A stretch of 29,017 bases of DNA, taken from Acutalibacteraceae bacterium (GTDB lineage: Bacteria; Bacillota; Clostridia; Oscillospirales; Acutalibacteraceae). Numbering within the stretch: the stretch's first letter is position 1; each line of letters begins with the position of its first letter. Where the stretch lies: positions 1-29,017 of the forward strand of contig JAZUMM010000108.1 of assembly GCA_045603625.1 (NCBI GenBank). The letters are read 5' to 3'. The translations under genes and the position numbers were made by a program. Positions 5,039-28,630 of the stretch are shown piece after piece. The notes below the pieces were generated by a model. It ran no database searches, had not been told where the DNA came from, and worked only from the letters and a program-made list of their open reading frames with translations.

Positions 5039-5039
5039 T

Positions 5040-5651: not shown

Positions 5652-5655
5652 TGTT

Positions 5656-6264: not shown

Positions 6265-6294
6265 TTTAATCTACGTTTAAGAGGTAATTTTGTA

Positions 6295-7494: not shown

Positions 7495-7525
7495 CTTTTC
7501 TTTAGGAAAGAGGAAAAAGAAATAA

Positions 7526-9416: not shown

Positions 9417-9417
9417 A

Positions 9418-10443: not shown

Positions 10444-10459
10444 AAGGTGAGGTGAAGGT

Positions 10460-11506: not shown

Positions 11507-11507
11507 A

Positions 11508-12305
11508 ATGAAGATTGAGCATATAGTTTCCACAATGAACAGAGAAGATTTTTCTTTTTTGGAAAATCTTGGTTTTGTAACAGATGTGGTTGTTGTTAAC
11601 CAGAATTGCCCGCAAAAAACTGAAAGCTTTTCTTTATCAAACGGCGTAAGTGTTAAAGCAATTTCAACTCCTGAAAAAGGTCTTAGCCGAAGCAGAAATA
11701 AGCTTATAGAAAATGCAACGGGTGACGTGTGTATTATAGGTGACGATGATGTCCAGTACCTTGACGGTTACCTTGATATTATTGAAAATGCATATAAAAA
11801 GTATACTGATGCAGATATAATAGTTTTTTGCTTTACTCACGAGAAAGGTAAGCAAACACGCTTGAGGTATACAGAAGATGTTGCAGTTTCAATGCAAAAC
11901 GTAAGCAAATTTGCTTCTGTTGAAATTACATTTAAGTCAGAGAGTATAAAAAAAGCGGGAATTTCCTTTAATAATAATATCGGTCTCGGCACGCCGTTTC
12001 CCAGTGGCGAAGAAAATGCCTTTTTGGCTGATGCTTTAAGGGCAGGGCTTAAAATATATCACGTTCCGCAGACTATATGTGTTGCAGTGGAAGATATGAA
12101 AATTAACGAGAATTATGATGTTTTAAAGTATATTGAAGATAAGGGCGCATCATTTTATTGTATTTATAAAAAAATGTTCCCCGTATATTCTCTTGCATTT
12201 ATAATTTTAAAGAAAAAAACAATTTTTAAAGATGTTTCAATTTTAAAAGCCTTTCGTTTTATGTTGAAGGGTAAAAGGAAATATATAAAATCCGTAAAGG
12301 AGTAA
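11508..12305 (+). CDS. GT2-like glycosyltransferase
   Basis: IVSTMN, VVVNQ, KGLSRSRN, IGDDDV, GEENAFL. Confidence 0.82.
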   Translation: MKIEHIVSTMNREDFSFLENLGFVTDVVVVNQNCPQKTESFSLSNGVSVKAISTPEKGLSRSRNKLIENATGDVCIIGDDDVQYLDGYLDIIENAYKKYTDADIIVFCFTHEKGKQTRLRYTEDVAVSMQNVSKFASVEITFKSESIKKAGISFNNNIGLGTPFPSGEENAFLADALRAGLKIYHVPQTICVAVEDMKINENYDVLKYIEDKGASFYCIYKKMFPVYSLAFIILKKKTIFKDVSILKAFRFMLKGKRKYIKSVKE

Positions 12306-12308
12306 GCT

Positions 12309-13187
12309 ATGCTTATAAGTGTAATAACGCCTACCTACAACAGAGCATACATACTGAATAAATGTTACAACAGTCTTGTTGCTCAGACCTCAAAGGCCTT
12401 TGAGTGGATTGTGGTGGATGACGGTTCATCAGATAATACTGAGGAATTGGTAGCTTCTTTTATTGAAGAAAACAGAATTAAAATCAAGTATATAAAGCAG
12501 GCAAACGGCGGTAAGCATATTGCTCATAATACTGCAGTTTTAAATTCACAGGGTGACCTTGTTGTGTGCCTTGATTCTGATGACGTTTTAACAGAAAATG
12601 CAATTGAAAAGGCAGTTTCTTTCTGGGAAGAAAATGCACAAGGGCATAATACGGGTATTCTTGCAAAGCGTGGCGATATGGTAGAGCGTAAGCCTATTTG
12701 CTCAGCGCTTCCCGAGGGTGTTAAGGAATGTACTATGTTTGATTTAACAAACAAATATGGGTTTGAGGGTGATACAATTCTCTATTTCAGGCGTGAAATT
12801 TTAGAGAAAAATCTTTTTAAATCCTTTGAGGGTGAAAGGTTTATTCCCGAAACAAATATGTACATTGAAATAGATAAATTTGGCACAATGCTTCTTTTAG
12901 ATGAGGTTTTGTACCTTTGTGAATATCTGCCTGACGGTTTAACTGCAAAATATCACAAGCTTTTAGAAAATAATCCAAACGGTACTGCCGATACATATTA
13001 TAAACAGATGTGTATGGCAAAGGATTTTAAAACAAAAGTGAAATATGGGTTATTAACCAATATATATAAATCACTTTCTCAAAATAAAAAGGAATTACAT
13101 TTTAAAGAAAACAGATTTTTGTTAATGGCTTTAAGTATTCCTTCAGCATTTATAAAAAATAAGTTTTTAAGTAAATTTGAGAGGTAA
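12309..13187 (+). CDS. GT2 glycosyltransferase
   Basis: ISVITPTYNRA, VVDDGSSD, NGGKHIAHN, LDSDD, EYLPDGLT. Confidence 0.92.
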   Translation: MLISVITPTYNRAYILNKCYNSLVAQTSKAFEWIVVDDGSSDNTEELVASFIEENRIKIKYIKQANGGKHIAHNTAVLNSQGDLVVCLDSDDVLTENAIEKAVSFWEENAQGHNTGILAKRGDMVERKPICSALPEGVKECTMFDLTNKYGFEGDTILYFRREILEKNLFKSFEGERFIPETNMYIEIDKFGTMLLLDEVLYLCEYLPDGLTAKYHKLLENNPNGTADTYYKQMCMAKDFKTKVKYGLLTNIYKSLSQNKKELHFKENRFLLMALSIPSAFIKNKFLSKFER

Positions 13188-13190
13188 ATT

Positions 13191-13973
13191 ATGATACCTA
13201 AAATAATTCATTACTGTTGGTTCGGCAGAGGTCAAATGCCTGAATTGGCGGTTAAGTGTATTGAAAGCTGGAAAAAGTTCTGTCCCGATTATGAAATAAT
13301 GGTCTGGAACGAGGATAATTTTGATATTACTTCTAACCGCTATGTTAAAGAGGCGTATGAATCAAGAAAATTTGCTTTTGTTACAGACTATGTAAGGCTT
13401 TATGCAATGTACAATTACGGTGGTATTTATATGGATACTGATGTAATGATACTTAAAAGTCTTGATGAATATTTGCATCATCACGCGTTTTCAGGCTTTG
13501 AGAGTAAAACAAAAATCCCGACCGGTATTATGGCATCAGAAAAAGGCTACGAGGTAATGGCGGACTTATTAAAGTTTTATGATGATGCAGTTTTTATAAA
13601 GGAAGATGGCTCATTTAACATAGTTACAAATACTGAAACTATTACAGCTATGTTTACTGATTGGGGCTTTGTGCCAAACGGGGAATATCAGGAGATTAAG
13701 GGTATGGCATTTTACCCGCAAAATATTTTTTGCCCTGACCACAAAAAGCTTAATGACAGTAAGTATATGAAAGAAACTGCCACAATTCACTATTTTGCAG
13801 GCTCATGGAAAAGTGAAGCAACACTTAAAAGGGAACGTTCTTTGTGGTGGAAGGCTTTTGCAGTTGTGGCAACGTCTGTATCAAAGGTGCTTACAAAGAT
13901 TTTGGGCGATAAATGGACAAATGCAAAAAATAAAGTCCGTGACAATGTTATTGAAAATGAAAAAAACAAATAA
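13191..13973 (+). CDS. GT32 (DXD, Gly_transf_sug) glycosyltransferase
   Basis: MIPKIIHYCWFG, WNEDNFD, AFVTDYVRL, GGIYMDTDV. Confidence 0.92.
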   Translation: MIPKIIHYCWFGRGQMPELAVKCIESWKKFCPDYEIMVWNEDNFDITSNRYVKEAYESRKFAFVTDYVRLYAMYNYGGIYMDTDVMILKSLDEYLHHHAFSGFESKTKIPTGIMASEKGYEVMADLLKFYDDAVFIKEDGSFNIVTNTETITAMFTDWGFVPNGEYQEIKGMAFYPQNIFCPDHKKLNDSKYMKETATIHYFAGSWKSEATLKRERSLWWKAFAVVATSVSKVLTKILGDKWTNAKNKVRDNVIENEKNK

Positions 13974-13989
13974 TCAGAGGAGCGGTTGT

Positions 13990-14991
13990 TTGAAAAGAGA
14001 TATAAACTTTAATTACATCCGTGTTGCTGCAATGGTTGCAATTGTTTTGTGCCATTATTTTCAGGTGTACGGTTTTTTTGGAGTTTCTTCGTGGTTGAAT
14101 ATAGGTGTTCAGGTGTTTTTTGTTCTTAGTGCTAAACTGATAAGCACCAAAAAATTCAACACAAAAGGTGATGTGCTCAGGTTTTTAAAAACGCGAATTC
14201 TCAGAATTTATATACCTGTCTGGATATACCTGATTTGCCTTATACCTGTTTTGTTTGTTGTGGGCAGGGGACCGGATGTTTCTGCAATTATAATGTATTT
14301 TCTGGGGCTTGCGGGCTTTTCTGAAATGGTTGTTTTGGGACTTGGTCATTTCTGGTACATATCTGTGTTGCTTATCTGTTATCTTTTGGTACCGGTATTA
14401 TATAAAATTGCTGATTTTTGCAAAAATACGGGGAAGGCAAAGGCCTTTGTTTTACAGGTAGCTGTTACAGCCGTACCTGTTTTAGTCTTTTTGTTTACAC
14501 AGTATAAGTTTTATGGTGTGAATATAGCATTTTTCTGCGCAGCATACTTTTTATTTTATAAAACAAAAGATAATGAAAATTGGTATAAAGGGAAGGCAAT
14601 TAAGTTATTCCCGTTAGTAGTTGTATTAACAGCCATCAGGCTTTTTACGGATACAAAGGAAATTGCTTCGAACAGTTATTATGACGGTTTATTTGTTACT
14701 TCAGTAAAAGCAATTACGGGAATGTTTTTGTTCTTTGCAATGTACAAATTGCTTTTGGTTTTAAAGGCAAAAGAATTAAAGATTGTTGATTATATATCAG
14801 ATATTTCTTACGAGGTTTACATTGTTCATCAATTTATACTTCTTGCGCTTTTTGAGTTTATTTCATTCTTTAAATCAGGTGTTGCGGGCAAAGTTTCAAT
14901 GTTGATATGCTCCGTAATAATGATTTTCTTTAATGCCGTGATTGTTTTTTACGTGAAAAAGTTTATTGAAAAAAGGGTTATTAAAAAATGA
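13990..14991 (+). CDS. Second acyltransferase-3 membrane O-acyltransferase
   Basis: TTG start at 13990, 7 nt after GAGGAG (13977-13982), gives (M)KRDINFNYIRVAAMVAIVLCH; GVQVFFVLS, HFWYIS, ISYEVYIVHQ. Confidence 0.83.
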   Translation: MKRDINFNYIRVAAMVAIVLCHYFQVYGFFGVSSWLNIGVQVFFVLSAKLISTKKFNTKGDVLRFLKTRILRIYIPVWIYLICLIPVLFVVGRGPDVSAIIMYFLGLAGFSEMVVLGLGHFWYISVLLICYLLVPVLYKIADFCKNTGKAKAFVLQVAVTAVPVLVFLFTQYKFYGVNIAFFCAAYFLFYKTKDNENWYKGKAIKLFPLVVVLTAIRLFTDTKEIASNSYYDGLFVTSVKAITGMFLFFAMYKLLLVLKAKELKIVDYISDISYEVYIVHQFILLALFEFISFFKSGVAGKVSMLICSVIMIFFNAVIVFYVKKFIEKRVIKK

Positions 14992-16217
14992 ATGTTTTAA
15001 TTGCTTTAGGCAGTATCACACCTAATGATGATGCCAACACAAATATTGCAAAGCTTATTGCCTCAGAAATGAAAAAAGGTAATAACGTAGCTTTACTTGG
15101 CACCGCTTTTCAAAAGGCACCTGAAAAAGAAGTTATAGACGGTGTTACGTATCACAGAATTTTAAGGCTTGAAAAAGAAAAGAATAAAAAGCTTTGGCAA
15201 GTATGGTCTTCTTTAAGCGGTAAAGGTGAACGAATAAAGTTTATTGCAAAGCATCCTTTTTACTTTTTTAAAATTACTTTTAATCATATAAGGGCACGAT
15301 TTACAGATGTACGGGAGGATGCGTACATAAAAAAGCTTAAAGAGCTTGAAAAAACAGAAAAAATAGACAGGGTAATTGTAATCACATCACCTTTTTATAT
15401 TGCTACAGCTGCACAAAAGGCTATTAAAAATGCAGAGGTTGTGTGGCATCAGCTTGACCCTAACCAGTCAAATATTACTGCAATTTATAAAGGTAAAACA
15501 GATTTACTTGAAAAAGAAAAGTCTCTTTATGAGTTTGTAAAGTATGCTGTTGTTCCGCGTCTTGTTTACGAGGAAAATATGCAAAATGAGCTTTCTGTTT
15601 ATAAAGATAAAATGATTCCTGCGGAGTTTCCGAATGTACGTAGGCTGTCATCTTCAGCAGTATCCGATGACGTAAGCTTTGATGAAAATAAAATAAACCT
15701 TGTGTTTGTAGGCGTGTTTTACGAGGATATCCGCAATCCTGTTCCATTGTTTGAAATTGTTTCAAAAACAAAAAATGAAAATATTGTTCTTAATATAGTC
15801 GGTGGCGGATGCGAGGAAATTGTTGAGGAATGGGCATCAGAGTATCCAAATAAAATTATCAGACACGGTTACCATTCACTTGAAGCTGCCCTTAATGCAA
15901 TGCAGAATGCCGATATACTTATAAATGTGGATAATACTGCAAAAAATATGCTTCCCAGCAAGGTTAATGATTATATAAGCACCGGCAAGCCGATTGTTAA
16001 TTTTCATCCCTTTGAGGATAGTAAAACGGTTGAATACTTTGAAAAATATCCGTTACATCACAACGTGTATATGCAAAATGTCTCTGCACAAGAGGTAGAA
16101 CTTTTTGAACGTTTTTGTGTTGAAAACAAGGGTAAGAGCATTGAGTTTAATGAAATAATAAGTAATTATAAGGAAAGCACACCGGAATATGTTTCCGCTA
16201 TGCTTTTAAGGGATTAA
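14988..16217 (+). CDS. GT-B fold (GT4-like) glycosyltransferase
   Basis: C-domain LVFVGVFY...IVGGG...ADILINVDN...PSKVNDYISTGKPIV; ATGA overlap with the upstream gene. Confidence 0.72.
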   Translation: MNVLIALGSITPNDDANTNIAKLIASEMKKGNNVALLGTAFQKAPEKEVIDGVTYHRILRLEKEKNKKLWQVWSSLSGKGERIKFIAKHPFYFFKITFNHIRARFTDVREDAYIKKLKELEKTEKIDRVIVITSPFYIATAAQKAIKNAEVVWHQLDPNQSNITAIYKGKTDLLEKEKSLYEFVKYAVVPRLVYEENMQNELSVYKDKMIPAEFPNVRRLSSSAVSDDVSFDENKINLVFVGVFYEDIRNPVPLFEIVSKTKNENIVLNIVGGGCEEIVEEWASEYPNKIIRHGYHSLEAALNAMQNADILINVDNTAKNMLPSKVNDYISTGKPIVNFHPFEDSKTVEYFEKYPLHHNVYMQNVSAQEVELFERFCVENKGKSIEFNEIISNYKESTPEYVSAMLLRD

Positions 16218-16219
16218 TT

Positions 16220-16876
16220 ATGAAAAAATTTAAAAATATAATTTCTCTCGGTTTTAATTGTCACGTTGCAAAGGACCTGGAAAGGTTAGGGTACAGAAAT
16301 GCCAGCTATCCCTTTGATTGGCTCATAAGTAATTTTTGTGATGTGATAGAGTCAATAGATACAGATTTTGTTCAATGGTTGAAGTTTTCTGATATTGAGC
16401 AGGATTCAGAGCACGAAAATGTGTACCACGATAAGGGTACAGGTCTTGATTTTTATCACGATTTTTTTCCTGATAAAACAATTGAAGAGCAGTACGATAA
16501 GGTTAAAAGTAAATATTCCAGAAGAATTGAAAGATTTCAAAAAGACTGTGCTCAGGCTACGTTGTTTATCCGCTTTGTGCGTAACGAGGAGGATTTGAAA
16601 TATATACAAAACAATCAAGAAAGAATATTATCCGTTCTGAAAAAAGAAAATGAGGATAATGATTGTATATATCTTTTACTTAACGAAAATCTTCAGGCAT
16701 ATGCAGATGATAAAAAGTTTTTTATGGTTACGGAATTGGTTCATCCGATAAAATCAAGCAAATCCGTACAAGCTTTTATAAAGAAAAATTTGGATATGAA
16801 AAAAACGCTTGTTTTAAAAAATAAAAAAAGGTATACAAAAAAAAGAATCGCTTCATTAAAAAAGAGGTTTATGTGA
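16220..16876 (+). CDS. DUF1796 (putative papain-like cysteine hydrolase/transferase) protein
   Basis: ISLGFNC, SYPFDW and FYHDF motifs. Confidence 0.75.
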   Translation: MKKFKNIISLGFNCHVAKDLERLGYRNASYPFDWLISNFCDVIESIDTDFVQWLKFSDIEQDSEHENVYHDKGTGLDFYHDFFPDKTIEEQYDKVKSKYSRRIERFQKDCAQATLFIRFVRNEEDLKYIQNNQERILSVLKKENEDNDCIYLLLNENLQAYADDKKFFMVTELVHPIKSSKSVQAFIKKNLDMKKTLVLKNKKRYTKKRIASLKKRFM

Positions 16877-16882
16877 GAATAT

Positions 16883-18430
16883 ATGGGTAAACTGAAAGGC
16901 ATTATAGAAAAACAAAAAACAATAGTTAATTTGCTGTCTGCCATAATGGCATACGGCTTATCCATTGTTATAAATTTTTTCCTTTCTCCGTATATTACAA
17001 AAACATTAGGCGTTGAGGCAAACGGCTTTGTTACCCTTGCAAATCAGGTCGTGGGATACGTTTCTCTCGTTACTGTTGCCCTTAACTCAATGGCAAGCCG
17101 TTTTGTAAGTGTACATTTAATGAACAAAGAGGAGGAAAAGGCAAAAGGATACTTTTCTTCTGTAACAATAGCAAATGTAGTTATCGGCGTGGTATTGTTT
17201 ATTCCTCTTGTAGTTTGCTCTTTAAACGTTGAAAAGCTTTTTACGGTACCAAGTGATTTGGTTGATGATACGGTTTTATTGTTTATTTTAGTTTCTATTA
17301 ACTTTGTTGTTGGTGTTGTTACAAATATATACAGCGTTTCTACATTTGTGGTTAATAAGCTTTATTTATCAACCTGCCGTAATATTGAAGGTAATATTTT
17401 GCGTTGCGGTACGCTTTTAATAATGTATACTGTGTTACCTCCAAAAATGTATTATGTTACCTTATCTGTAATAGTTAATACCGTGTATATTGTTTTATGG
17501 AATGTTTATTACACAAAAAAATATACACCTCAATTAAAAATCAAAATGCAATATTTTAAATTATCATATTGCATTGAGCTTGTAAAATCAGGTGCGTGGA
17601 ATCTTTTAAGCAGTCTGAATTCCGTGCTTAATACAGGTCTTGATTTATTGTTATGTAATATTTTTATAGACCCTGTTTCAATGGGCGTTTTGTCTGTTTC
17701 AAAGATTTTTCCTACGGCAATATCCACAATGGTCAATTCTGTTTCAGGTGCATTTGGCCCTGAAATGACTCAAAAATATGCAGATGGCGATTATAACGGT
17801 TTTACAAAAACCATTCTTAAAAGTGTTAAGTTTATCGGTATTGTAATTAATATACCCATAGTTGTGCTTGTGGCAATGGGCAAACAGTTTTATAAGGTAT
17901 GGCAGCCTACCCTTGATGAAGGGGAATTGTTTATTCTTTCATTTCTTGCAATTGCGGGCGTTGTGGTAAGTGGTAGCACAGCTTGCGTTTTTGGAATGTT
18001 TACTGTTGTTAATAAGCTTAAGTTTCATTCGGTAACATCACTTTTGTTTGGTGTTTTAAATGCCGTTGTTGTAATTGTTGCATTAAGCATTTCCACAGAA
18101 AACGGTGTTTATATTATTGCAGGCACAAGTACGGTGCTCACTATTATCAGAAACTATTTACTCACATTTCCGTATGCCGCTAAATGTCTTAAGCAAAAGT
18201 GGTATGTTTTTCACAAGGCATCGTTTTCATCAATTGTTGCAGCGGCATTATCAGGCGTGTGTTCTTATTTTGCAGTGAAGCTTATAAATATGAACAGTTG
18301 GCTTACAGTTATTATCGGCGCAGGTATTTGTGCAGTAGTTACTGTTATTGTAAGTGCATTGATTCTTTTTACAAATGAAGAAAAGAAGCAGTATATTAAA
18401 CTTATTACTAAAAAGATAAAGAAGGCGTAA
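16883..18430 (+). CDS. wzx: Wzx flippase (MOP superfamily)
   Basis: 515 aa with about 12-14 TM segments; SPYITKTLGVEANG, LNSMASRF, GLDLLLCNIF, in a glycan locus. Confidence 0.85.
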   Translation: MGKLKGIIEKQKTIVNLLSAIMAYGLSIVINFFLSPYITKTLGVEANGFVTLANQVVGYVSLVTVALNSMASRFVSVHLMNKEEEKAKGYFSSVTIANVVIGVVLFIPLVVCSLNVEKLFTVPSDLVDDTVLLFILVSINFVVGVVTNIYSVSTFVVNKLYLSTCRNIEGNILRCGTLLIMYTVLPPKMYYVTLSVIVNTVYIVLWNVYYTKKYTPQLKIKMQYFKLSYCIELVKSGAWNLLSSLNSVLNTGLDLLLCNIFIDPVSMGVLSVSKIFPTAISTMVNSVSGAFGPEMTQKYADGDYNGFTKTILKSVKFIGIVINIPIVVLVAMGKQFYKVWQPTLDEGELFILSFLAIAGVVVSGSTACVFGMFTVVNKLKFHSVTSLLFGVLNAVVVIVALSISTENGVYIIAGTSTVLTIIRNYLLTFPYAAKCLKQKWYVFHKASFSSIVAAALSGVCSYFAVKLINMNSWLTVIIGAGICAVVTVIVSALILFTNEEKKQYIKLITKKIKKA

Positions 18431-18432
18431 AA

Positions 18433-19335
18433 ATGAATCCGTTAATTCAGTTTAAACTTGGCATAACAAGATTTTTAGGGCCGGATAAATGGAACGATGT
18501 TCTTTTAAAAAACGGTTTTAAAAAGTTTAAAAAGGCTCAGCCGGATTTGGCTGCTGAGGTTGAAAAAAATATAAAATACAAAGGTATTCACAAGGGTGAA
18601 AGGTGCTTTATAATCGGTAACGGACCATCTCTTAAGGAGCAGGATTTATCTGTTTTGGGTGACGAGTATGTGCTTACCTGTAATCAGATTATGAGGAATC
18701 CTGTTTTTCCGAGTCTTCGCACTAATTATCACTTTTGGGCAGACCCTTCGTTCTTTGCTTTGAGTCCTGACAGGCCGGAGGATATGGAAATTTTGGAGGT
18801 TATGCTCAGTGTTAATACCGAAGGCAACAGACCTGTTAACTTCTTTGCTCAAGAGGGCTATGATTTTGCAAAAAGGTTTAACCTTCAAGAAAAGCTTGAT
18901 ATTGCATTTTATTCGCACCGTCTGGAATTAACAGATGACTTTAATAACGGAATTCATTTCGACAAATTCACGCCTAATTTACATACGGTTGTTCATTATG
19001 CTGTTGCTATGGCAATATATATGGGTTTTTCTGAAATATATCTTTTAGGTTGCGATTGTACAAATGTTATTACTGCAGCAAACACTCGTCTTATGGCAGG
19101 TGATGGCGCAGAGTATGCATACAAAATTTCCGAAAATGAGAAAAAACGTATGATGAACAGGAACAATGCAATATCTATGGAGGATGAGCTTAAAAGCTTC
19201 TACGAGGTATTTAAGGGCTACAGAGTTTTGCGTGATATTTGCGAAAAATCTGGTATTAAGCTTTACAACTGCACAGCAGGCGGTCTTTTGGATTGCGTTG
19301 AAAGAAAAAAATATGAAGATGTAATAGGAAGGTAA
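18433..19335 (+). CDS. Maf/DUF115-like protein with CstII-type sialyltransferase-fold motifs; candidate ulosonic-acid transferase
   Basis: RCFIIGNGPSL...VLTCN and TVVHYAVAMAIYMGFSEIYLLGCD parallel CstII VIIAGNGPSL...VFRCN and TSGVYMCAVAIALGYKEIYLSGID. Confidence 0.75.
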   Translation: MNPLIQFKLGITRFLGPDKWNDVLLKNGFKKFKKAQPDLAAEVEKNIKYKGIHKGERCFIIGNGPSLKEQDLSVLGDEYVLTCNQIMRNPVFPSLRTNYHFWADPSFFALSPDRPEDMEILEVMLSVNTEGNRPVNFFAQEGYDFAKRFNLQEKLDIAFYSHRLELTDDFNNGIHFDKFTPNLHTVVHYAVAMAIYMGFSEIYLLGCDCTNVITAANTRLMAGDGAEYAYKISENEKKRMMNRNNAISMEDELKSFYEVFKGYRVLRDICEKSGIKLYNCTAGGLLDCVERKKYEDVIGR

Positions 19336-19339
19336 TGTT

Positions 19340-20104
19340 ATGAAAATAATCGGTGTTATTCCTGCAAGATATAAGTCCTCTCGTTTTCCCGGCAAGCCAC
19401 TTGCTGATATCTGTGGCAAGCCAATGATATGGTGGGTATATAATCAGTGCAAAAAGGTTGAAGATTTTGATGCTGTTTACGTTGCAACAGATGATGATAA
19501 AATCTTTGACACGTGTAAAAGTCTTGGCATTGAGGTTATTATGACCTCTGATACACATAAAACAGGTACTGACAGAATCGGAGAGGTTGCACGCAAAATA
19601 CCTGCAGAGCTTATTGTTAACATTCAAGGGGATGAGCCTCTTTTGGAGCCTGCAACAATTAAGGCTGCAATAGAGCCGTTCTATTCAAATCCTGACCTTG
19701 AAATTTCTAATCTTATGACTAAAATCACAGACCCTATTGAGGTTGTGAATTTTACGGTTCCTAAGGTTATTACTAATAAAGACGGTATAGGTGTCTACCT
19801 TACAAGAGCAACTGCTCCGTATCCGAAGGGGAGCCTCGATTACGCATATTACAAGCAGGTGTGCGTATACGGCTTTAAGCCTGAGGCATTACAATTTTAC
19901 TGTGATTACGGTATGAAGTTCGGTAAGGCAAGGGTAGAAGCAGTTGAGGATATTGAAATATTACGTTTTATTGAAAACGGTTATAAGGTTCAGTATATTG
20001 AGGTTGATTCTGATACCGTTGCAGTTGATACACCTAACGACTTGGAAAAGGTCAGAAAAATTGTGGCAGAAAAGATTAATGCAGGGGAAATAAGTAATAA
20101 TTAA
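19340..20104 (+). CDS. kdsB: KdsB-type 3-deoxy-ulosonate cytidylyltransferase
   Basis: IPARYKSSRFPGKPL, VATDD, TGTDR, VNIQGDEP, VDTPNDL are KdsB signatures rather than NeuA signatures. Confidence 0.88.
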   Translation: MKIIGVIPARYKSSRFPGKPLADICGKPMIWWVYNQCKKVEDFDAVYVATDDDKIFDTCKSLGIEVIMTSDTHKTGTDRIGEVARKIPAELIVNIQGDEPLLEPATIKAAIEPFYSNPDLEISNLMTKITDPIEVVNFTVPKVITNKDGIGVYLTRATAPYPKGSLDYAYYKQVCVYGFKPEALQFYCDYGMKFGKARVEAVEDIEILRFIENGYKVQYIEVDSDTVAVDTPNDLEKVRKIVAEKINAGEISNN

Positions 20105-20113
20105 GAGGTGCTT

Positions 20114-21688
20114 ATGAGCAAAATCAATGTACTTGACTGCACGTTACGTGATGGCGGTTATTGTAACAATTGGATGTTCGGCAAACAGAATATCGGCAGA
20201 ATTATTAATGCTCTTGTAGAAGCAGACGTGGAAATAATTGAGTGCGGTTTTTTAACTCAAAAGGTTGAATATGATGTTAACTCCACTCAGTTTACAGATG
20301 TTTCACAGGTTGGTAGCTTTATACCTGCAAACAAACACGGCAAGCTTTTTGTTTGTATGATTAATTTCGGTGAGTTTTCTGTAGAAAATTTACCTTCTGC
20401 AGAGGATACGTCTTTAGATGGTATTCGCGTTGCTTTTCACAAAAAAGATATGGTTGAAGCCATGGCGTTTTGCAAGCAAATAAAAGAAAAGGGCTACAAG
20501 GTTTTTGTTCAGCCTATGGTTTCTTTAGGGTATACAGAGGAAGAATTCAGCGCCTTGATTTCTCTTGCAAATGATATAATGCCACACGCATTTTATATTG
20601 TAGATAGCTTTGGTGTTATGAAGCAAAAAAACCTCTTCAGACTTTTTAAAATTGTTGAAGAGGAATTGGATGAAAATGTAATTGTCGGCTATCATTCTCA
20701 TAATAATATGCAGTTGGCTTATTCAAATGCTCAGTCTCTTGCGGATGCAGATACTGAAAGAAGCTTGATAATTGATTCCAGTATTTTTGGTATGGGACGC
20801 GGTGCAGGTAACCTTAACACAGAGCTTTTTGTAGAATATCTTAATGATAATAACGGTAAAAGCTATGTGCTTCGCCCGTTACTTGTTGTAATTGATGATA
20901 TTTTAAATAATTTTCACGAAACAAATTATTGGGGCTATTCTTTGCCGAACTATTTATCTGCAAAGCACAATGCACACCCCAATTATGCAACGTACCTTGA
21001 TTCTAAAAAGACACTTACCGTTGAAGCGATTGATGAAATCTTCGGTATGATGGCTGAAGATAAAAAATCATCATTTGATAAAAAATATATGGAAGAGCTT
21101 TACCTTAAATATATGATGAAGGGTAATGTTAACGAGAAGAAGCTTTTTGAATTAAAAGAACAGCTTTGTGGTAAAACGGTGTTGATTATTGCTCCGGGTA
21201 GCAGCTCTGTAACGGAAAAGGATAAAATAATTTCCTTTGCCCAACAGGAAAACGTTATAACGATAAGCGTTAATTTTCATTACGATGAATGTGAAACTGA
21301 TTTTATTTTCCTCAGTAATCTTCGCAGATTCAGAAAAATGAAGAAAGGTAAAGAAAAATGCATTGTAACCTCCAATATACCTGCAGAGAATGTGTACCTG
21401 CAAACAGATTACCAAAGTCTTCTGAATGATTATGAGGGTGTGAAGGATAATGCAGGTATGATGCTTGTTAAGTTTCTTATAGAGCTTGGTGTTAAAAATA
21501 TTTGCCTTGCGGGATTAGACGGTTACTCTATTGATGCTACAAAAAACTTTGCGGATGAAGCAATGAATTTCTTTACACAAAAAAGAATTTTTGAAACTAT
21601 GAATGAGGGTATGAATCAGGCTCTTGGTGAATATAGTAAGTTAATTAATATTCAATTTATAACAACACCTAAGTATGTAAAAATATAA
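20114..21688 (+). CDS. DRE-TIM metallo-aldolase (4-hydroxy-2-oxovalerate aldolase-like) fused to a C-terminal CstII/Maf-like domain
   Basis: LDCTLRDGGY, YIVDSFG, YHSHNN, DSSIFGMGRGAGN; C-domain KTVLIIAPGSS...ITISVN...LIELGVKNICLAGLDGY; ATG at 20114 follows AGAGG. Confidence 0.8.
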   Translation: MSKINVLDCTLRDGGYCNNWMFGKQNIGRIINALVEADVEIIECGFLTQKVEYDVNSTQFTDVSQVGSFIPANKHGKLFVCMINFGEFSVENLPSAEDTSLDGIRVAFHKKDMVEAMAFCKQIKEKGYKVFVQPMVSLGYTEEEFSALISLANDIMPHAFYIVDSFGVMKQKNLFRLFKIVEEELDENVIVGYHSHNNMQLAYSNAQSLADADTERSLIIDSSIFGMGRGAGNLNTELFVEYLNDNNGKSYVLRPLLVVIDDILNNFHETNYWGYSLPNYLSAKHNAHPNYATYLDSKKTLTVEAIDEIFGMMAEDKKSSFDKKYMEELYLKYMMKGNVNEKKLFELKEQLCGKTVLIIAPGSSSVTEKDKIISFAQQENVITISVNFHYDECETDFIFLSNLRRFRKMKKGKEKCIVTSNIPAENVYLQTDYQSLLNDYEGVKDNAGMMLVKFLIELGVKNICLAGLDGYSIDATKNFADEAMNFFTQKRIFETMNEGMNQALGEYSKLINIQFITTPKYVKI

Positions 21689-21707
21689 AAAAGCAGGTAA
21701 TTGCAAA

Positions 21708-22805
21708 ATGAAAAAAGTTATGCTTGTTTTCGGTACAAGACCGGAAGCTATAAAAATGTGTCCGTTAGTAAACGAATTAAAAAGCAGAAAAGAGCTTCAG
21801 ACAGTTGTGTGTGTTACAGGTCAACACCGTCAGATGCTTGACCAGGTGCTTGAAGCATTTTCTGTAACACCGGACTACGACCTTTCAATTATGAAAGAAC
21901 GTCAGACTCTTTTTGACGTAACAACAAATATTCTTAATTCAATTAAAGAGGTTCTTGAAAAGGAAAAGCCGAACGTAGTTCTTGTACACGGTGACACTTC
22001 CACAACGTTTGTTACAGCGCTTGCTTGTTTTTATTTGCAGATTCCTGTTGGTCACGTTGAGGCAGGCTTAAGAACCTACAATATTTATTCACCATATCCT
22101 GAAGAGTTCAATCGTCAGGCGGTAGGTATTGTGAGTCAATTCAATTTTGCTCCCACAGAGCTTTCCAGAGATAATCTTCTGAAAGAAGGTAAATGTGCCG
22201 ATAATATTTATATTACAGGTAACACTGCTATTGACGCACTTAAAACAACAGTTAAAGAAAATTATACTCATCCTGAGCTTGAATGGGCAGAGGGTAGCAG
22301 GCTTATTATGATTACTGCTCATCGTCGCGAAAATCTTGGTGAACCAATGAAGAATATGTTCAGGGCAATTCGCAGAGTTATGGATGAAAATCCTGATGTT
22401 AAAGCGATTTACCCTATCCACATGAATCCTGTTGTTCGAGAAACTGCAAATGAGTTTTTAGGTGATGATGAAAGGATTCACATTATTGAGCCTCTTGAGG
22501 TTCTTGATTTTCACAATTTCCTTAATAAAAGCTATCTTATTCTTACAGACTCAGGTGGTATTCAGGAGGAGGCACCGTCTTTGGGTAAGCCTGTTCTTGT
22601 TATGAGAGATACAACTGAACGTCCTGAGGGAATTAAGGCAGGTACCCTTAAGCTTGTGGGAACAGAAGAAGAAACAATCTATAATGAATTTACAAAGCTT
22701 CTTACAGATGAAAAAGAATATAATAAAATGAGTCAGGCATCAAATCCGTATGGTGATGGCTTTGCTTGTAAGAGAATAGCGGATATTCTTATTGAAAAGT
22801 TATAA
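21708..22805 (+). CDS. wecB: UDP-GlcNAc 2-epimerase, non-hydrolysing (WecB/MnaA)
   Basis: FGTRPEAIKM, TGQHRQML, VHGDT, HVEAGLR, TAHRREN, TDSGGIQEEAPSLGKP, NPYGDG. Confidence 0.96.
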   Translation: MKKVMLVFGTRPEAIKMCPLVNELKSRKELQTVVCVTGQHRQMLDQVLEAFSVTPDYDLSIMKERQTLFDVTTNILNSIKEVLEKEKPNVVLVHGDTSTTFVTALACFYLQIPVGHVEAGLRTYNIYSPYPEEFNRQAVGIVSQFNFAPTELSRDNLLKEGKCADNIYITGNTAIDALKTTVKENYTHPELEWAEGSRLIMITAHRRENLGEPMKNMFRAIRRVMDENPDVKAIYPIHMNPVVRETANEFLGDDERIHIIEPLEVLDFHNFLNKSYLILTDSGGIQEEAPSLGKPVLVMRDTTERPEGIKAGTLKLVGTEEETIYNEFTKLLTDEKEYNKMSQASNPYGDGFACKRIADILIEKL

Positions 22806-22853: not shown

Positions 22854-24041
22854 TTATTTTGGTCCAAAAACTGCAAGCAAGAAGCCTGCTGCAACTGCAG
22901 AGCCTATAACACCTGCAACGTTTGGTCCCATAGCGTGCATAAGAAGGAAGTTTGTTGGGTTATATTTTCTGCCTTCGTTTTGTGCAACACGTGCCGCCAT
23001 AGGTACTGCAGAAACGCCTGCCGCACCAATAAGCGGATTAATTTTGCCTTTTGTAACAACGTAAAGAAGCTTGCCGAAGAGTACGCCGCCTGCAGTTGAG
23101 AAAGAAAAAGCAATAAGACCGAGAAGGATAATTTTAAGTGTTTGTGATTGTAAGAAGGTTTCGCCGTCTGCTGTTGCACCAACGCACACACCAAGCATAA
23201 TTGTTACTATGTTCATAAGTGCGTTTTGTGCTGTATCAGAAAGTCTGTCGGTAACACCGCATTCACGGAAAAGGTTACCGAGCATTAACATACCAAGAAG
23301 CGGTACAACATCAGGAAGAAGAAGTGCGCAGAAAATAAGAACTGCAACAGGGAAGATTATTTTTTCTGCTTTTGAAACCTTTCTTAATTGCTTCATTTCA
23401 ACCTTACGCTCTTTTTCTGTTGTAAGGAGTTTCATGATTTTTGGTTGAATGAAAGGAATGAGTGCCATGTACGAATATGCCGCCAAGGCAATCGGCGCTA
23501 ACAATTTTGGTGCAAGTTGAGATGTAAGGAAAATAGCGGTAGGACCGTCTGCACCGCCGATGATTGCAATAGATGCAGCCTCATGTCCTTCAAATCCAAG
23601 AAAGACAGCAATTAAAAATGCCATATAAACACCTAATTGTGCGGCAGCACCTAAAAGAAGGCTGACAGGGTTTGAAAGAAGGGGACCAAAGTCTGTCATA
23701 GCACCTACGCCCATAAATATAAGGCAAGGGAATATGTTTGATTTAACACCAACGTACAGAATTCGCAGGAAGCCCGATTCAAACCAATGTTTTGATGCGT
23801 CGGCTGTGGTTCCTATACTACCTAACTCACCACCGGTGGTGTCAAGCATAACGTTGGCACCCGGGAGATTTGCTAAAAGAATACCAAATGCAATGGGAAC
23901 CAGAAGAAGCGGTTCAAATTTGAATCTGATTGCCAACACCAGGAAGAAAATGGCAACACCAATCATTATCAAATTTTCTACCTGAAGAGTAGCAAAACCG
24001 GATTCTTCCCAGAGATTTAATAAAATGTCTGAAAAATTCAT
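22854..24041 (-). CDS. oadB: Na+-translocating decarboxylase beta subunit
   Basis: FEPLLLVPIAFG, GVGAMTDFGPL, IIGGADGPTAIF, LAAYSYMALIP, GVSAVPMAARV, HAMGPNVAGVIGS. Confidence 0.96.
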   Translation of the reverse strand: MNFSDILLNLWEESGFATLQVENLIMIGVAIFFLVLAIRFKFEPLLLVPIAFGILLANLPGANVMLDTTGGELGSIGTTADASKHWFESGFLRILYVGVKSNIFPCLIFMGVGAMTDFGPLLSNPVSLLLGAAAQLGVYMAFLIAVFLGFEGHEAASIAIIGGADGPTAIFLTSQLAPKLLAPIALAAYSYMALIPFIQPKIMKLLTTEKERKVEMKQLRKVSKAEKIIFPVAVLIFCALLLPDVVPLLGMLMLGNLFRECGVTDRLSDTAQNALMNIVTIMLGVCVGATADGETFLQSQTLKIILLGLIAFSFSTAGGVLFGKLLYVVTKGKINPLIGAAGVSAVPMAARVAQNEGRKYNPTNFLLMHAMGPNVAGVIGSAVAAGFLLAVFGPK

Positions 24042-24062
24042 AGTTTGTTTCCTTTGCTTTAA

Positions 24063-24479
24063 TTAGATAACTGCAAGAACATCATCTGTGTTAACTGTTG
24101 TACCCTTTGGAGCATTAATTGATTTAACAGTACCGTCACAAGGAGCAACAATATCGTTTTCCATTTTCATAGCTTCAAGAACACAAATAACGTCGCCTGC
24201 TTTAACTGCATCGCCAACGCTCTTTTTAACTGCAAGGATTGTACCCGGCATCGGAGCTTTAACCTGTGTACCGTCTGCACTGACAGGAGCAGGTGCAGCA
24301 GGTGCAGCAGGAGCTTCTGCAACAGGAGCTGCAGGTGCTTCAGCAACAGGTGCAGCAACGGGAGCAGCTGCAGGTGCAGCAACAACAAAAGGAACTTGTG
24401 AAACGCCTGTAACAACAGCATCACTTTCTGTAACGTCTACTTCATAAATTTTACCGTTTAATGTAACATTATATTTCAT
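24063..24479 (-). CDS. Stand-alone biotin carboxyl carrier subunit (MmdC/GcdC/OadH type)
   Basis: KYNVTLNGKIYEVDV, Ala-Pro linker, APMPGTI, LEAMKMEN biotinylation site. Confidence 0.95.
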   Translation of the reverse strand: MKYNVTLNGKIYEVDVTESDAVVTGVSQVPFVVAAPAAAPVAAPVAEAPAAPVAEAPAAPAAPAPVSADGTQVKAPMPGTILAVKKSVGDAVKAGDVICVLEAMKMENDIVAPCDGTVKSINAPKGTTVNTDDVLAVI

Positions 24480-24482
24480 AAC

Positions 24483-25001
24483 TTAGTCCTCCACTAATTT
24501 AATTGAGTTAAATATAAGATTTTCTAAAGGTATACCTGTTTTATCGGATGTGATAGCCATAATTGCGGCAGCATCCTGTTCTTCAATATTTTCAAGAACA
24601 GGGTCCTGATTAAGTCTTTTGATTGTTTTAAAATCAAGCCTTGAAAGGTCAATACCTGTTCTGTGTGATGTAATAGCCATTAAAACGGCTGCATCTTGCT
24701 CGGAAACTCCGTCAAGAACAACGTACCCCGGAATATGAGGAATTGCATCTTCTTTTGCCTCTTCTGCAGATTCTGCAATAACCTCAACAGGAGCAGAAGC
24801 TGTTTCTGTGGAAGATGTGTTTTCTTCTGCAGGGGCAGAATCTTTGCTTTTTTCTTTTTTATTTCCAACTATTTTTGAAAGTAAAATAACAAAAATAGCA
24901 AGAACGGCAAGAACGGAAAGCACTATTACGAAACCGAAGCCTGATACCTTTAATGCTTCAGGTATTGAGAGTTTTTCTAATTGAAAAGGAAGAAATATCA
25001 T
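24483..25001 (-). CDS. oadG: OadG/MmdD-type membrane anchor subunit with a duplicated C-terminal domain
   Basis: Single N-terminal TM (GFGFVIVLSVLAVLAIFVILLSKIV), acidic linker, two EQDAAxxMAITS repeats; position within the operon. Confidence 0.85.
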   Translation of the reverse strand: MIFLPFQLEKLSIPEALKVSGFGFVIVLSVLAVLAIFVILLSKIVGNKKEKSKDSAPAEENTSSTETASAPVEVIAESAEEAKEDAIPHIPGYVVLDGVSEQDAAVLMAITSHRTGIDLSRLDFKTIKRLNQDPVLENIEEQDAAAIMAITSDKTGIPLENLIFNSIKLVED

Positions 25002-25013
25002 ATTTAATCCTCC

Positions 25014-26396
25014 TTAATCAATGGCCTTGAATTCGTAGGTGTAGATTTTGCCTGCCATTTCATCGCGATAATCAAAGAAGTTTTCTGCCTGAGTCGGGAA
25101 AGCGATGTATGAAAGAACATCCTCATCACTATGAGCCTTTTCACCGATTTCTGCTTTAGCAGTTTCAAAAGCAGGTTCAAGTGTATCTGCGAATCTGCCT
25201 TCAATAGGAGCAACGTCGCCAAGAATCTGGCTTCTTACATCTTCGTTGATAGCGCCCGGAGCTTTACCGTATTCGCCCATAAGGTAAGATTTAACTTCTT
25301 TAGAAACGTTTTTGTATCTTTCGCCTGAAAGAACGTTGTTTGTGGCCTGAACACCAACCATCTGGCTCATTGGAGTAACGAGTGGCGGATAACCAAGGTC
25401 TTCACGTACACGAGGTGTTTCAAGAAGAACCTCATCAAATTTATCCATCTTACCTTGTGCGGTAAGCTGAGCAACAAGGTTAGAAAGCATACCGCCCGGA
25501 ACCTGATAATCAAGAGCTTTTGCATCTGTGCAAAGAACTGTCGGGTTAAGAAGACCGCTTTCAAGAGCCTTTGCTCTGATTGGCTTGAAGAAATCTGCAA
25601 TCTCGCGAAGAGCATTTGAGTTAAGACCTGTATCGTAGTCAAGCTCTGAAAGTGTGTAGTTAAGTGTTTCTGTTGCAGGTTGAGCAGTACCGCCTGACAT
25701 TGTTGAAATTGCAGTGTCTATAACGTCAACGCCTGCTTCAACTGCTTTAAGGCAAGTCATAAAGCCAAGACCTGTTGTGCAGTGAGTGTGAAGAACAATC
25801 GGAAGGTCAACAGCCTCTTTAAGTGAAGAAACAAGCTTGTGTGCTTCTGCAGGGCTGAGTATACCTGCCATATCTTTAATTGCAATTGTCTGGCAACCAA
25901 GACTCTGCATATTTTTAGCAAGTTCAACGTAAGATTCAAGAGTGTGAATAGGGCTGATTGTGTAGCAGATAGCACCTGAAGCAATCGCACCGTTTTTAAC
26001 AGTTTCGTCAACTGCAACTTCAATGTTTTTTACGTCGTTAAGTGCGTCAAATATTCTGATAATATCAATACCGTTTTCAATGCTCTTTTTAACAAACATA
26101 CGAACTACGTCATCAGGGTAGTGACGGTAGCCGAGAAGGTTTTGACCTCTGAGGAGCATCTGGAGCTTTGTGTTAGGGCAAGCCTTTTTGATTTTTCTGA
26201 GTCTTTCCCATGGGTCTTCGTTAAGGTAACGAAGGCAAGAGTCAAATGTTGCACCGCCCCAGCATTCAAGTGAATAGTAGCCGGCTTTGTCTAACTCTTT
26301 AAGGATTGGCTCAAACTCTCTGAATTTCATTCGTGTTGCAATAAGCGATTGGTTAGCGTCTCGCAACACTGTTTCGGTAAATTGAACCTTTTGCAT
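25014..26396 (-). CDS. oadA: Oxaloacetate decarboxylase alpha / pyruvate carboxyltransferase subunit, without a biotin domain
   Basis: ETVLRDANQSL, LECWGGATFD, MLLRGQNLLGY, IKDMAG, HTHCTTG, YQVPGGMLSN, LGYPPLVTPMSQ; RBS AAGGAG. Confidence 0.9.
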   Translation of the reverse strand: MQKVQFTETVLRDANQSLIATRMKFREFEPILKELDKAGYYSLECWGGATFDSCLRYLNEDPWERLRKIKKACPNTKLQMLLRGQNLLGYRHYPDDVVRMFVKKSIENGIDIIRIFDALNDVKNIEVAVDETVKNGAIASGAICYTISPIHTLESYVELAKNMQSLGCQTIAIKDMAGILSPAEAHKLVSSLKEAVDLPIVLHTHCTTGLGFMTCLKAVEAGVDVIDTAISTMSGGTAQPATETLNYTLSELDYDTGLNSNALREIADFFKPIRAKALESGLLNPTVLCTDAKALDYQVPGGMLSNLVAQLTAQGKMDKFDEVLLETPRVREDLGYPPLVTPMSQMVGVQATNNVLSGERYKNVSKEVKSYLMGEYGKAPGAINEDVRSQILGDVAPIEGRFADTLEPAFETAKAEIGEKAHSDEDVLSYIAFPTQAENFFDYRDEMAGKIYTYEFKAID

Positions 26397-27838: not shown

Positions 27839-27880
27839 TAAAACAGGTGCGAAGCATTTGGCTTTCGCACCTGTTTTATT
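27837..27880. terminator. Bidirectional terminator between the SGNH gene and sleB
   Basis: Perfect 17 bp inverted repeat aataaaacaggtgcgaa (27837-27853) / ttcgcacctgttttatt (27864-27880). Confidence 0.92.
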
Positions 27881-28601: not shown

Positions 28602-28630
28602 TCTGGTCACCTCAATACATTATTTGTAAT

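Follow-up and report, generated by a model that had tools for sequence, protein, structure and literature searches.

How does a spore-forming monoderm come to carry, within one surface polysaccharide locus, an enzyme of the KdsB family next to an aldolase, with none of the usual genes for making a 3-deoxy-2-ulosonic acid beside them? This question was raised by a stretch of 29,017 nucleotides (hereafter, the window), which is contig C108 of an Acutalibacteraceae metagenome-assembled genome (MAG; G000, 1.95 Mb, 78% complete). Three genes at 18433-21688 are at issue, and they encode an MptE-like/DUF115 protein, a cytidylyltransferase and an aldolase. We propose, with a probability of about 0.68, that they form a module for the synthesis of a 3-deoxy-2-ulosonic acid activated by cytidine monophosphate (CMP), independent of the canonical synthases KdsA and NeuB. 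The first-pass annotation had read the three genes as an ulosonate module as well, and none of the in silico tests that we ran, on gene pairing, natural fusions and canonical genes (which were not found), refuted this reading. The features of the module are the following:

18433-19335, + strand: MptE-like/DUF115 protein (related to Maf, WaaZ and CstII), 300 aa, proposed CMP-ulosonate transferase; PF01973
19340-20104, + strand: KdsB-family cytidylyltransferase, 254 aa, of a distinct aldolase-linked clade; NF009905, TIGR00466
20114-20857, + strand (residues 3-250 of protein P0001): DRE-TIM barrel of the aldolase, proposed pyruvate-dependent ulosonate(-phosphate) synthase; PF00682
20858-21127, + strand (residues 251-340): helical subdomain that follows the barrel; AlphaFold2 (AF2) model, Foldseek
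21128-21688, + strand (residues 341-526): C-terminal MptE/DUF115-like nucleotide-binding domain of the aldolase; hhalign, Foldseek

These family matches agreed with the identities assigned earlier, that is, a sialyltransferase-fold protein, a KdsB-type enzyme and a DRE-TIM enzyme. The aldolase open reading frame was listed from 20108 or 20114; the ATG at 20114 is preceded by an AAGAGG ribosome-binding site and gives a protein of 524 aa. Taking this start, the successive gaps between wzx, the MptE-like gene, the cytidylyltransferase gene, the aldolase gene and wecB are 2, 4, 9 and 19 nt, which bears out the spacing of 4 and 9 bp reported behind the flippase gene. Each of the three genes is present in one copy in the genome.

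The aldolase, the cytidylyltransferase and the putative transferase

The aldolase matched PF00682 (HMGL-like) with 68 bits, for a cut-off of 29, over residues 6-246. It aligned with PDB 3DXI over residues 6-289 (E 3e-30), and this structure was also the best Foldseek hit (TM-score 0.82 on the target). 3DXI is BVU_2661 of Bacteroides (Phocaeicola) vulgatus, deposited as 'N-terminal domain of a putative aldolase', of which only the barrel was solved; the likeness covers the barrel of the aldolase. Matches to 4-hydroxy-2-oxovalerate aldolases (HOA aldolases), such as DmpG, had E values of 1e-16 to 1e-11. The AF2 model (pLDDT 94) superposed on 3DXI and on DmpG-type enzymes, including the helical subdomain: helices were seen at residues 256-353, and Foldseek aligned the communication domain of HOA aldolases over ~344 columns. 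In 70 homologues, down to 33% identity, invariant residues were found in all three parts of the protein, namely R14, D15, E45, H196 and H198 in the barrel, W275, G276 and H290 in the helical subdomain, and N389, N423, G469, D471 and G472 in the C-terminal domain. R14, D15, H196 and H198 aligned with R17, D18, H200 and H202 of DmpG, that is, with the enolate-stabilising Arg of the LRDG motif and the metal ligands (Asp and two His).

The model for 4-hydroxy-2-oxovalerate aldolase itself, TIGR03217, gave 93.6 bits and failed its cut-off of 286. Moreover, no acylating aldehyde dehydrogenase partner was found in the window, and none was noted in 60 related loci, in which only the larger clusters were annotated. 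Because of these two observations, we take the aldolase, on sequence grounds, to be a pyruvate-type DRE-TIM enzyme and not an HOA aldolase proper. With DmpG and BphI, which are accompanied by the dehydrogenases DmpF and BphJ, it shares the barrel, the helical subdomain, the Asp and two His ligands and the enolate Arg. It differs from them by a Tyr in place of a His, by the lack of the dehydrogenase, by its extra MptE-like domain and by its biosynthetic context.

What, then, could the extra domain be? Residues 341-526 had no Pfam match, and a BLASTP comparison with the MptE-like protein of the module found nothing. When the family of the latter was used instead, hhalign gave a probability of 91.5% (E 8.8e-7, 132 columns), with a match extending from the GxGxS motif to the GxDG motif. 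A separate AF2 model of the domain (pLDDT 93) had its best Foldseek probabilities with archaeal HPPK (MptE; 8SD5 and 8SBU, 0.96-0.97) and with SteA, these matches being weak (E ~1e-2, TM-score ~0.48). In the atlas, look-alike clusters of the domain are set among MptE-like families, some of them labelled WaaZ transferase of the third 3-deoxy-manno-octulosonic acid (Kdo) residue, or Kdo-III transferase. Thus, the domain shares with MptE, Maf and CstII the fold and the motif order GxGxS ... N ... GxDG, but differs by the missing Pfam match, by the absence of a His at the CstII catalytic position and by being always fused to the aldolase. Since it occurred in every aldolase subgroup, including one with no cytidylyltransferase nearby, its function would be linked to the aldolase as such. 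Candidate roles are those of a second transferase, of a kinase that pulls the reaction and of a sensor responding to the CMP-sugar end product.

The cytidylyltransferase matched PF02348 (159 bits), NF009905 (291 bits, cut-off 255) and TIGR00466 (165 bits, cut-off 155), and it aligned over its full length with KpsU/KdsB structures (E ~1e-47 to KpsU, 1GQ9). The residues for CTP and Mg, namely R10, R15, K19, D98, D230 and D234 in the numbering of the window protein, are kept with respect to genuine KdsB. Q96 and Y177 are retained too, and the residues matching them bind the C5 hydroxyl of Kdo in E. coli KdsB (PMC12199768). Seven positions formed a signature of their own: N124, T139, N146, Q173, C175, I205 and I207 in the window protein, versus S, N, D, H, G, L and Q in four genuine Campylobacterota KdsB. 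The active-site His181 of KdsB is replaced by Q173, and the LEQLR motif by IEILR, the His and LEQLR being present in KpsU and in two KdsB structures.

This pocket signature was identical in 13 stand-alone proteins of the Clostridia type and in 10 domains fused to the aldolase in Campylobacterota. The fused domains scored 125-131 bits, below the KdsB cut-off of 155, versus 232-252 bits for the housekeeping KdsB copy. Campylobacterota with the fusion keep, besides this separate KdsB, a separate KdsA (4/5 genomes). We regard the window cytidylyltransferase as a member of a distinct, aldolase-linked clade of the KdsB family. Because its pocket signature is absent from genuine KdsB, the sugar is probably not Kdo. 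The shared signature, together with the separate KdsA and KdsB of Campylobacterota, makes it likely that the same, probably non-Kdo sugar is handled in both phyla.

As regards the third gene, its 300-aa product matched PF01973 with 37.7 bits (cut-off 34.6) over residues 184-210 only, and the CST-I Pfam family with 22.3 bits, under the cut-off of 25. It aligned with CstII structures at E ~1e-3 through its GNGPS, CNQ and GxD motifs. No His is present after residue 188, so that the catalytic His188 of CstII is not conserved. PF01973 was matched by all 16 of its neighbourhood homologues, and automatic family labels in the atlas likewise call some MptE-like clusters Kdo-III transferase (WaaZ). We propose that this protein is the CMP-ulosonate transferase.

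Gene neighbourhoods, fusions and canonical synthases

Do these genes travel together elsewhere? The aldolase family returned 7,702 matches in one search, and 808 clusters at E < 1e-30 in a library of 50%-identity representatives. We mapped 61 loci and sorted them into three groups. The close group, with at least 48% aldolase identity, held 23 loci from Clostridia, Sporolactobacillus, Selenomonadales, Bacteroidetes, Riflebacteria and one Nanobdellota archaeon. There, a CTP_transf_3 gene lay within 200 bp of the aldolase gene in 18 of the 23 loci and within 3 kb in 3 more. The second group, mostly Campylobacterota, contributed 24 copies, with a KdsB-type domain fused to the aldolase in 11 (~768 aa) and the gene within 200 bp in 9, that is, 20/24. 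Outside the third group, made up of Lachnospiraceae, a cytidylyltransferase adjoined or was fused to the aldolase in 44/47 loci. A sialyltransferase-like gene was present in 17/23 close loci: it was a homologue of the 300-aa MptE-like protein in 13, GT52-like in 2 and polysialyltransferase-like in 3, one locus having two kinds. The conservation of the genes together and the co-occurrence with DUF115, both put forward by the first-pass annotation as ways to check its reading, were therefore recovered. Accessory genes were also noticed, with a PfkB gene 3' of the aldolase in 6 close loci and a HAD-IA phosphatase gene in the loci of 12 of the 24 second-group copies.

Some close loci use instead a short cytidylyltransferase (~220 aa), weakly PseF-like, and other pocket variants were seen in three loci (L014, L023 and L070). 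The aldolase family probably makes more than one product. In Helicobacter, two or three aldolase copies in each of three loci (L049, L051 and L056) were interleaved with TylF-type methyltransferases and as many as nine CTP_transf_3 paralogues, which makes these loci unusually rich in cytidylyltransferase genes.

The third group behaved differently, as a cytidylyltransferase was never nearby in its 13 Lachnospiraceae loci. An enzyme dependent on thiamine diphosphate (ThDP) and resembling acetolactate synthase was always present, usually with a HAD-IIA phosphatase, and with genes like those of CDP-deoxyhexose pathways. In this subgroup (including L029, L035, L038, L041, L047, L057-L059, L063 and L064), the aldolase is ~37% identical and its MptE-like domain intact; other neighbours are a nucleotidyltransferase, a 4,6-dehydratase-like gene, a long DegT-type protein, GT2 and GtrA. 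The ThDP enzyme may use the aldolase product there, as part of a pathway to a branched-chain or extended deoxysugar.

Natural fusions were sought among 50%-identity representatives of the family. The aldolase was joined to a KdsB-type domain in 8 representative proteins. P0252 associates it with a KdsC-family phosphatase (TIGR01670, 154.6 bits for a cut-off of 107) that also resembles Kdn-9-phosphate phosphatase, and P0221 with a HAD-IA phosphatase. In P0134 (L071:4515-6833, 772 aa), an HpcH/HpaI class II pyruvate aldolase is fused ahead of the DRE-TIM aldolase. A cytidylyltransferase gene lies directly upstream of both the P0252 and P0134 fusions (L070 and L071), with polysaccharide genes around. 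HpcH/HpaI aldolases fused to or adjoining the DRE-TIM aldolase were seen as well in L023 and L048, the cases including a Nanobdellota archaeon MAG.

KdsC-family enzymes act on phosphorylated 3-deoxy-ulosonic acids. The fusion with such an enzyme is the strongest single argument that the aldolase makes a phosphorylated 3-deoxy-ulosonic acid, probably from an aldose phosphate. In Eubacterium callanderi, the PfkB protein encoded next to the aldolase was most like the kinase half of a family of fusions between a kinase and 2-keto-3-deoxy-6-phosphogluconate (KDPG) aldolase, and like kinases of 2-keto-3-deoxygluconate (KDG) and 2-keto-3-deoxygalactonate (KDGal); homologues at ~50% identity were found in five other loci. 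Given this resemblance, its substrate class would again be a 2-keto-3-deoxy acid. The phosphatase or KDG-kinase-like genes of these other lineages point to a phosphorylated intermediate.

Could a canonical synthase located elsewhere supply the acid? As the first-pass annotation had noted, none of kdsA, kdsC, kdsD, neuB and hydrolysing neuC was found in the window, the 2-epimerase present being WecB. In the whole MAG, itself 78% complete, no KdsA, NeuB, KdsD or KdsC was over cut-off. Because of this incompleteness, other carriers of the module were searched, and neither KdsA nor NeuB was found in six relatives (G006, G008, G009, G048, G389 and G216). The first of these is the isolate Sporolactobacillus spathodeae, two more are Acutalibacteraceae MAGs, and the last three are Clostridia genomes, 95-99% complete, that have the aldolase. 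In those three, the search returned only DAHP-synthase-like matches (108-130 bits for a cut-off of 314), and there was no true NeuB; a KdsB-type gene adjoins the aldolase in G048 and G389, and G216 is counted here for its aldolase. Five module genomes, our own MAG and four of the six relatives, were also searched for KdsD and KdsC, neither of which was found. Thus, the kdsA or neuB elsewhere in the genome that the first-pass annotation had seen as fatal to its reading did not turn up in this 78%-complete MAG.

The first-pass annotation had further proposed to look for an anti-correlation with kdsA/neuB. In a sample of 400 Clostridia species, 17 genomes had a full-length aldolase, and NeuB was present in 3 of them (14/17 without), versus a background of 62/399. 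This frequency, near background, indicated that aldolase and NeuB are independent. Strong KdsB-type genes occurred in four genomes of the sample, three of them adjoining the aldolase, and the weaker cytidylyltransferase matches all adjoined NeuB.

With 308 bits, the top-scoring KdsB-type gene of the sample lies at L069 (G014:C2:470000-489900, ~5600-10850), between a class I aldolase of the DHDPS/NanA family and YhcH/DUF386, with BNR_2 sialidase-like and FG-GAP genes near. No DRE-TIM aldolase adjoins it or occurs on the 20-kb stretch, 3 of 24 candidates having been scored genome-wide, and no true KdsA or NeuB was found in the G014 genome. The make-up of this locus suggests salvage or catabolism of a Kdo-like acid.

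A proposed pathway, its rivals and the identity of the sugar

In the pathway that we propose, the DRE-TIM domain would bind pyruvate on a divalent metal. Addition of its enolate to an aldose, which most likely is phosphorylated, would give a 4-hydroxy-2-oxo (3-deoxy-ulosonic) acid. If this product is phosphorylated, a phosphatase, here presumably encoded elsewhere in the genome, would remove the phosphate. The cytidylyltransferase would then join CMP to the anomeric C2 hydroxyl, and the release of pyrophosphate would pull the reversible aldol reaction. The MptE/DUF115-type protein would move the acid from its CMP donor to an undecaprenyl-linked repeat unit, to be exported and polymerised by Wzx and Wzy. 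We infer every catalytic activity of this scheme, and the phosphorylated intermediate in this genome, from sequence. The earlier idea of a self-contained module stood in part: putative genes for synthesis, activation and transfer are present, but the module may not be complete in itself, since it is accompanied in other lineages by a phosphatase or a KDG-kinase-like gene.

Several observations weigh against this proposal. The module has here neither a phosphatase nor a kinase gene, though such genes are common in related modules, which may mean that a step is absent or that another substrate is used. As the cytidylyltransferase scores above the curated KdsB cut-offs, its scores are compatible with Kdo. 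In the aldolase, a nearly invariant Tyr18 replaces the catalytic His21 of DmpG (also found in BphI). The lack of a cytidylyltransferase in the Lachnospiraceae subgroup indicated that the aldolase product is not always CMP-activated. Our own MAG is incomplete, as said, and we found no description of the aldolase-cytidylyltransferase module or of the aldolase family in the literature. We also list here the structure prediction of an aldolase-cytidylyltransferase complex, whose score of 0.00 has no weight either way.

Among the alternatives, the aldolase might simply replace KdsA, condensing pyruvate with arabinose 5-phosphate or arabinose to give genuine Kdo, which an ordinary CMP-Kdo synthetase would activate. 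The scores against KdsB models, the full-length alignment with KpsU and the two retained C5-hydroxyl contacts (PMC12199768) are consistent with it, as are the KdsC-family phosphatase of one natural fusion and a WaaA-like gene that precedes the fusion in four Campylobacterota loci. Nevertheless, the arabinose-5-phosphate isomerase KdsD/KpsF was not found in the five module genomes, and no member of the aldolase-linked clade retains His181 or the Gln of LEQLR. Furthermore, fusion-bearing Campylobacterota have their own KdsA and a second KdsB with a higher score, so that the fusion would not be their route to Kdo. We consider this explanation unlikely. The ulosonic-acid class of the product named by the first-pass annotation is supported by the fusions, but the Kdo that it listed as one option is disfavoured by the pocket and by the KdsD result.

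KdsB-type enzymes require a cyclic ketose hydroxyl, and short products cannot cyclise. This bears on the idea that the aldolase makes a short non-sugar 4-hydroxy-2-oxo acid, for instance from acetaldehyde or glycolaldehyde, destined to be a non-carbohydrate substituent or to be consumed elsewhere, with the cytidylyltransferase acting on another substrate. The closest characterised relatives do use acetaldehyde, and the Lachnospiraceae loci, devoid of cytidylyltransferase, have beside the aldolase a ThDP enzyme that could use a 2-oxo acid; but the fusions to KdsB-type domains and to a KdsC-family phosphatase, as well as the KDG-kinase-like neighbour, argue for a sugar acid, which makes this idea quite improbable. 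The aldolase could otherwise be a NanA-like lyase that degrades or balances a pool of scavenged Kdo, Kdn or sialic acid from diet or host, the cytidylyltransferase activating the scavenged acid. Pyruvate aldolases are reversible, and the G014 locus does couple a KdsB-type gene with a NanA/DHDPS-family aldolase, a BNR sialidase-like gene and YhcH. Yet, the window lacks catabolic genes, such as those for a sialidase or a transporter, the aldolase and cytidylyltransferase genes belong in several phyla to loci of Wzx/Wzy-type biosynthesis, and phosphatase fusions fit synthesis from a sugar phosphate. A lyase fused to the activating enzyme would in addition be a futile arrangement, and we hold salvage to be very improbable.

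If synthesis of an ulosonic acid by the aldolase is accepted, which sugar would it be? It is probably a Kdo-like acid of 6 to 8 carbons that is not Kdo. The phosphatase fusions argue for an aldose phosphate as substrate, and the obvious universal candidates are glyceraldehyde 3-phosphate, erythrose 4-phosphate, ribose 5-phosphate and hexose 6-phosphate. The failure to find KdsD speaks against arabinose 5-phosphate, and hence against Kdo. Plain D-KDG, to which the KDG-kinase-like neighbour had pointed, was weakened as a product, since UxuA, KdgK and Eda are already in the genome (mannonate dehydratase, E 3e-121 to 3BAN; KDG kinase, E 8e-122 to 2AFB; KDPG aldolase also present) and the aldolase is not needed for KDG; a C4 epimer of KDG or another chain length is possible. 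Contigs C212 (L073) and C202 (L074) of the MAG carry ordinary hexuronate/KDG catabolism. A lead from the 4-deoxy-2-hexulosonic acid of the E. coli K3 capsule was dropped, because the product of a pyruvate aldol reaction would be 3-deoxy. A role for the aldolase as a KdsA replacement for the Kdo of lipopolysaccharide (LPS) was rejected as well, given the KdsA (4/5) and the higher-scoring KdsB kept by fusion-bearing Campylobacterota.

A broader and more doubtful version can be sketched. With the ~525-aa aldolase and its MptE-like domain, a third class of ulosonate(-phosphate) synthases, dependent on pyruvate, might have its first member. This class would be spread over Bacillota, Bacteroidota, Campylobacterota, Spirochaetota and a MAG labelled as a DPANN (Nanobdellota) archaeon, and served by its own cytidylyltransferase clade. 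Its CMP-activated acidic sugar would be neither Kdo nor a known nonulosonic acid; a truncated or epimeric Kdo analogue made from glyceraldehyde 3-phosphate, erythrose 4-phosphate or ribose 5-phosphate would be a candidate. The MptE-like domain might then be the ATP-dependent kinase or end-product sensor that makes a reversible aldolase biosynthetic. Taken as a whole, this version is speculative and we would not bet on it.

How does the module compare with known systems? Like the Kdo pathway (KdsD, KdsA, KdsC and KdsB/KpsU, then WaaA, KpsC/S or WaaZ), it would build an ulosonate, probably as a phosphate, dephosphorylate it, activate it with CMP and transfer it; its cytidylyltransferase is a true member of the KdsB family, and some relatives of the module fuse a KdsC-family phosphatase. 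It differs by a metal- and pyruvate-dependent DRE-TIM aldolase in place of the phosphoenolpyruvate-dependent KdsA, by a KdsD that was not found, by the altered pocket and by a monoderm host without LPS. With nonulosonic-acid clusters (NeuB/PseI/LegI, NeuA/PseF/LegF, and sialyltransferases or Maf), it has in common the layout of synthase, CMP-synthetase and sialyltransferase-fold protein in surface-glycan loci, and GT52-, GT38- and GT42/DUF115-like transferases also accompany the aldolase-cytidylyltransferase pair. However, the module has no NeuB-family synthase and, in the window, a cytidylyltransferase that is KdsB-like and not NeuA-like, and the NeuB genes of the Clostridia sample adjoin their own separate, weaker-scoring cytidylyltransferases. 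The module would thus work like these pathways, but with a synthase from an unrelated enzyme class and an extra nucleotide-binding domain. In the one-pot laboratory synthesis of CMP-sialic acid, the reversible pyruvate aldolase NanA is pulled by the irreversible activation catalysed by CMP-sialic acid synthetase. The natural aldolase-cytidylyltransferase fusions suggest the same principle, although NanA has a different fold and belongs to the class I (Schiff-base) aldolases, and the synthesis is artificial and concerns nine-carbon sugars.

If our proposal is correct, there would be a third way to build CMP-activated keto-deoxy sugar acids, in which a class II pyruvate aldolase stands in for KdsA or NeuB. 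Existing annotation of the aldolase family goes no further than 'aldolase catalytic domain-containing protein' or '4-hydroxy-2-oxovalerate aldolase'. By NCBI cut-offs, the cytidylyltransferase would be named '3-deoxy-manno-octulosonate cytidylyltransferase', even in monoderms that seemingly lack the rest of the Kdo pathway, where this name is probably wrong. Gut and rumen Clostridia would bear an unrecognised acidic sugar on their capsules, and Campylobacterota probably on their surface glycans, which would matter for phage receptors and for recognition by the host. For the preparation of CMP-sugar acids, the natural aldolase-cytidylyltransferase fusions could be useful biocatalysts. Cultured carriers are available in Eubacterium callanderi, Sporolactobacillus spathodeae DSM 100968 and Lachnospiraceae bacterium C6A11.

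The surrounding locus and its host

The module sits in a + strand polysaccharide locus that spans 3848-22805 of the window. Besides several glycosyltransferases, two acyltransferases and a DUF1796 protein, this locus contains the following context features:

3848-6264, + strand: initiating set of a DegT aminotransferase, a PglC-like phosphoglycosyl transferase and a PglD-like acetyltransferase; PF01041, PF02397, PF17836
7526-8668, + strand: polytopic membrane protein, likely Wzy polymerase or ligase-like; ~9 transmembrane (TM)-like segments by hydropathy scan
16883-18430, + strand: Wzx-type flippase; PF01943, 39 bits; 11 TM-like segments
21708-22805, + strand: non-hydrolysing UDP-GlcNAc 2-epimerase WecB, not NeuC; TIGR00236, 522 bits

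The membrane protein at 7526-8668 had no Pfam or NCBIfam match. For the WecB-like gene, the NeuC model TIGR03568 gave 110 bits versus a cut-off of 236. The closest relatives by locus are Acutalibacteraceae MAGs, with aldolase identities of 87% (L006) and 74% (L007); a WecB-like gene is also found 3' of the aldolase in L006, not in L007. A HAD gene at 491-1033 was considered as the missing phosphatase and rejected, as it is of the YqeG-family housekeeping type and lies far upstream, outside the locus.

The genome encodes Spo0A (258 bits, cut-off 200) and, at 27879-28610 of the window, a SleB-like hydrolase; LpxC was not found in this 78%-complete MAG. On these grounds, it is reasonable to regard the host as a spore-forming monoderm, which fits the sporulating Gram-positive without LPS described by the first-pass annotation.

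A soluble 409-aa protein (14988-16217) without a family match and a DUF1796 putative papain-like protein (16220-16876, 62 bits), which lies between it and wzx, are both kept in the loci of the nearest relatives. Just upstream, the acyltransferase open reading frame at 13795-14991 was listed with a TTG start that overlaps the preceding glycosyltransferase gene by 179 nt, and its first ~50 residues look non-genic; the true start is probably near the methionines of MLLKMKK or MKKTNN, at ~13945-13960. Downstream of the locus, on the - strand, 22854-26396 holds a sodium-pumping decarboxylase operon with a beta subunit, a biotin carrier, a gamma-like subunit and a carboxyltransferase that has its own HMGL-like barrel. 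This operon is unrelated to the polysaccharide locus and marks its downstream end.

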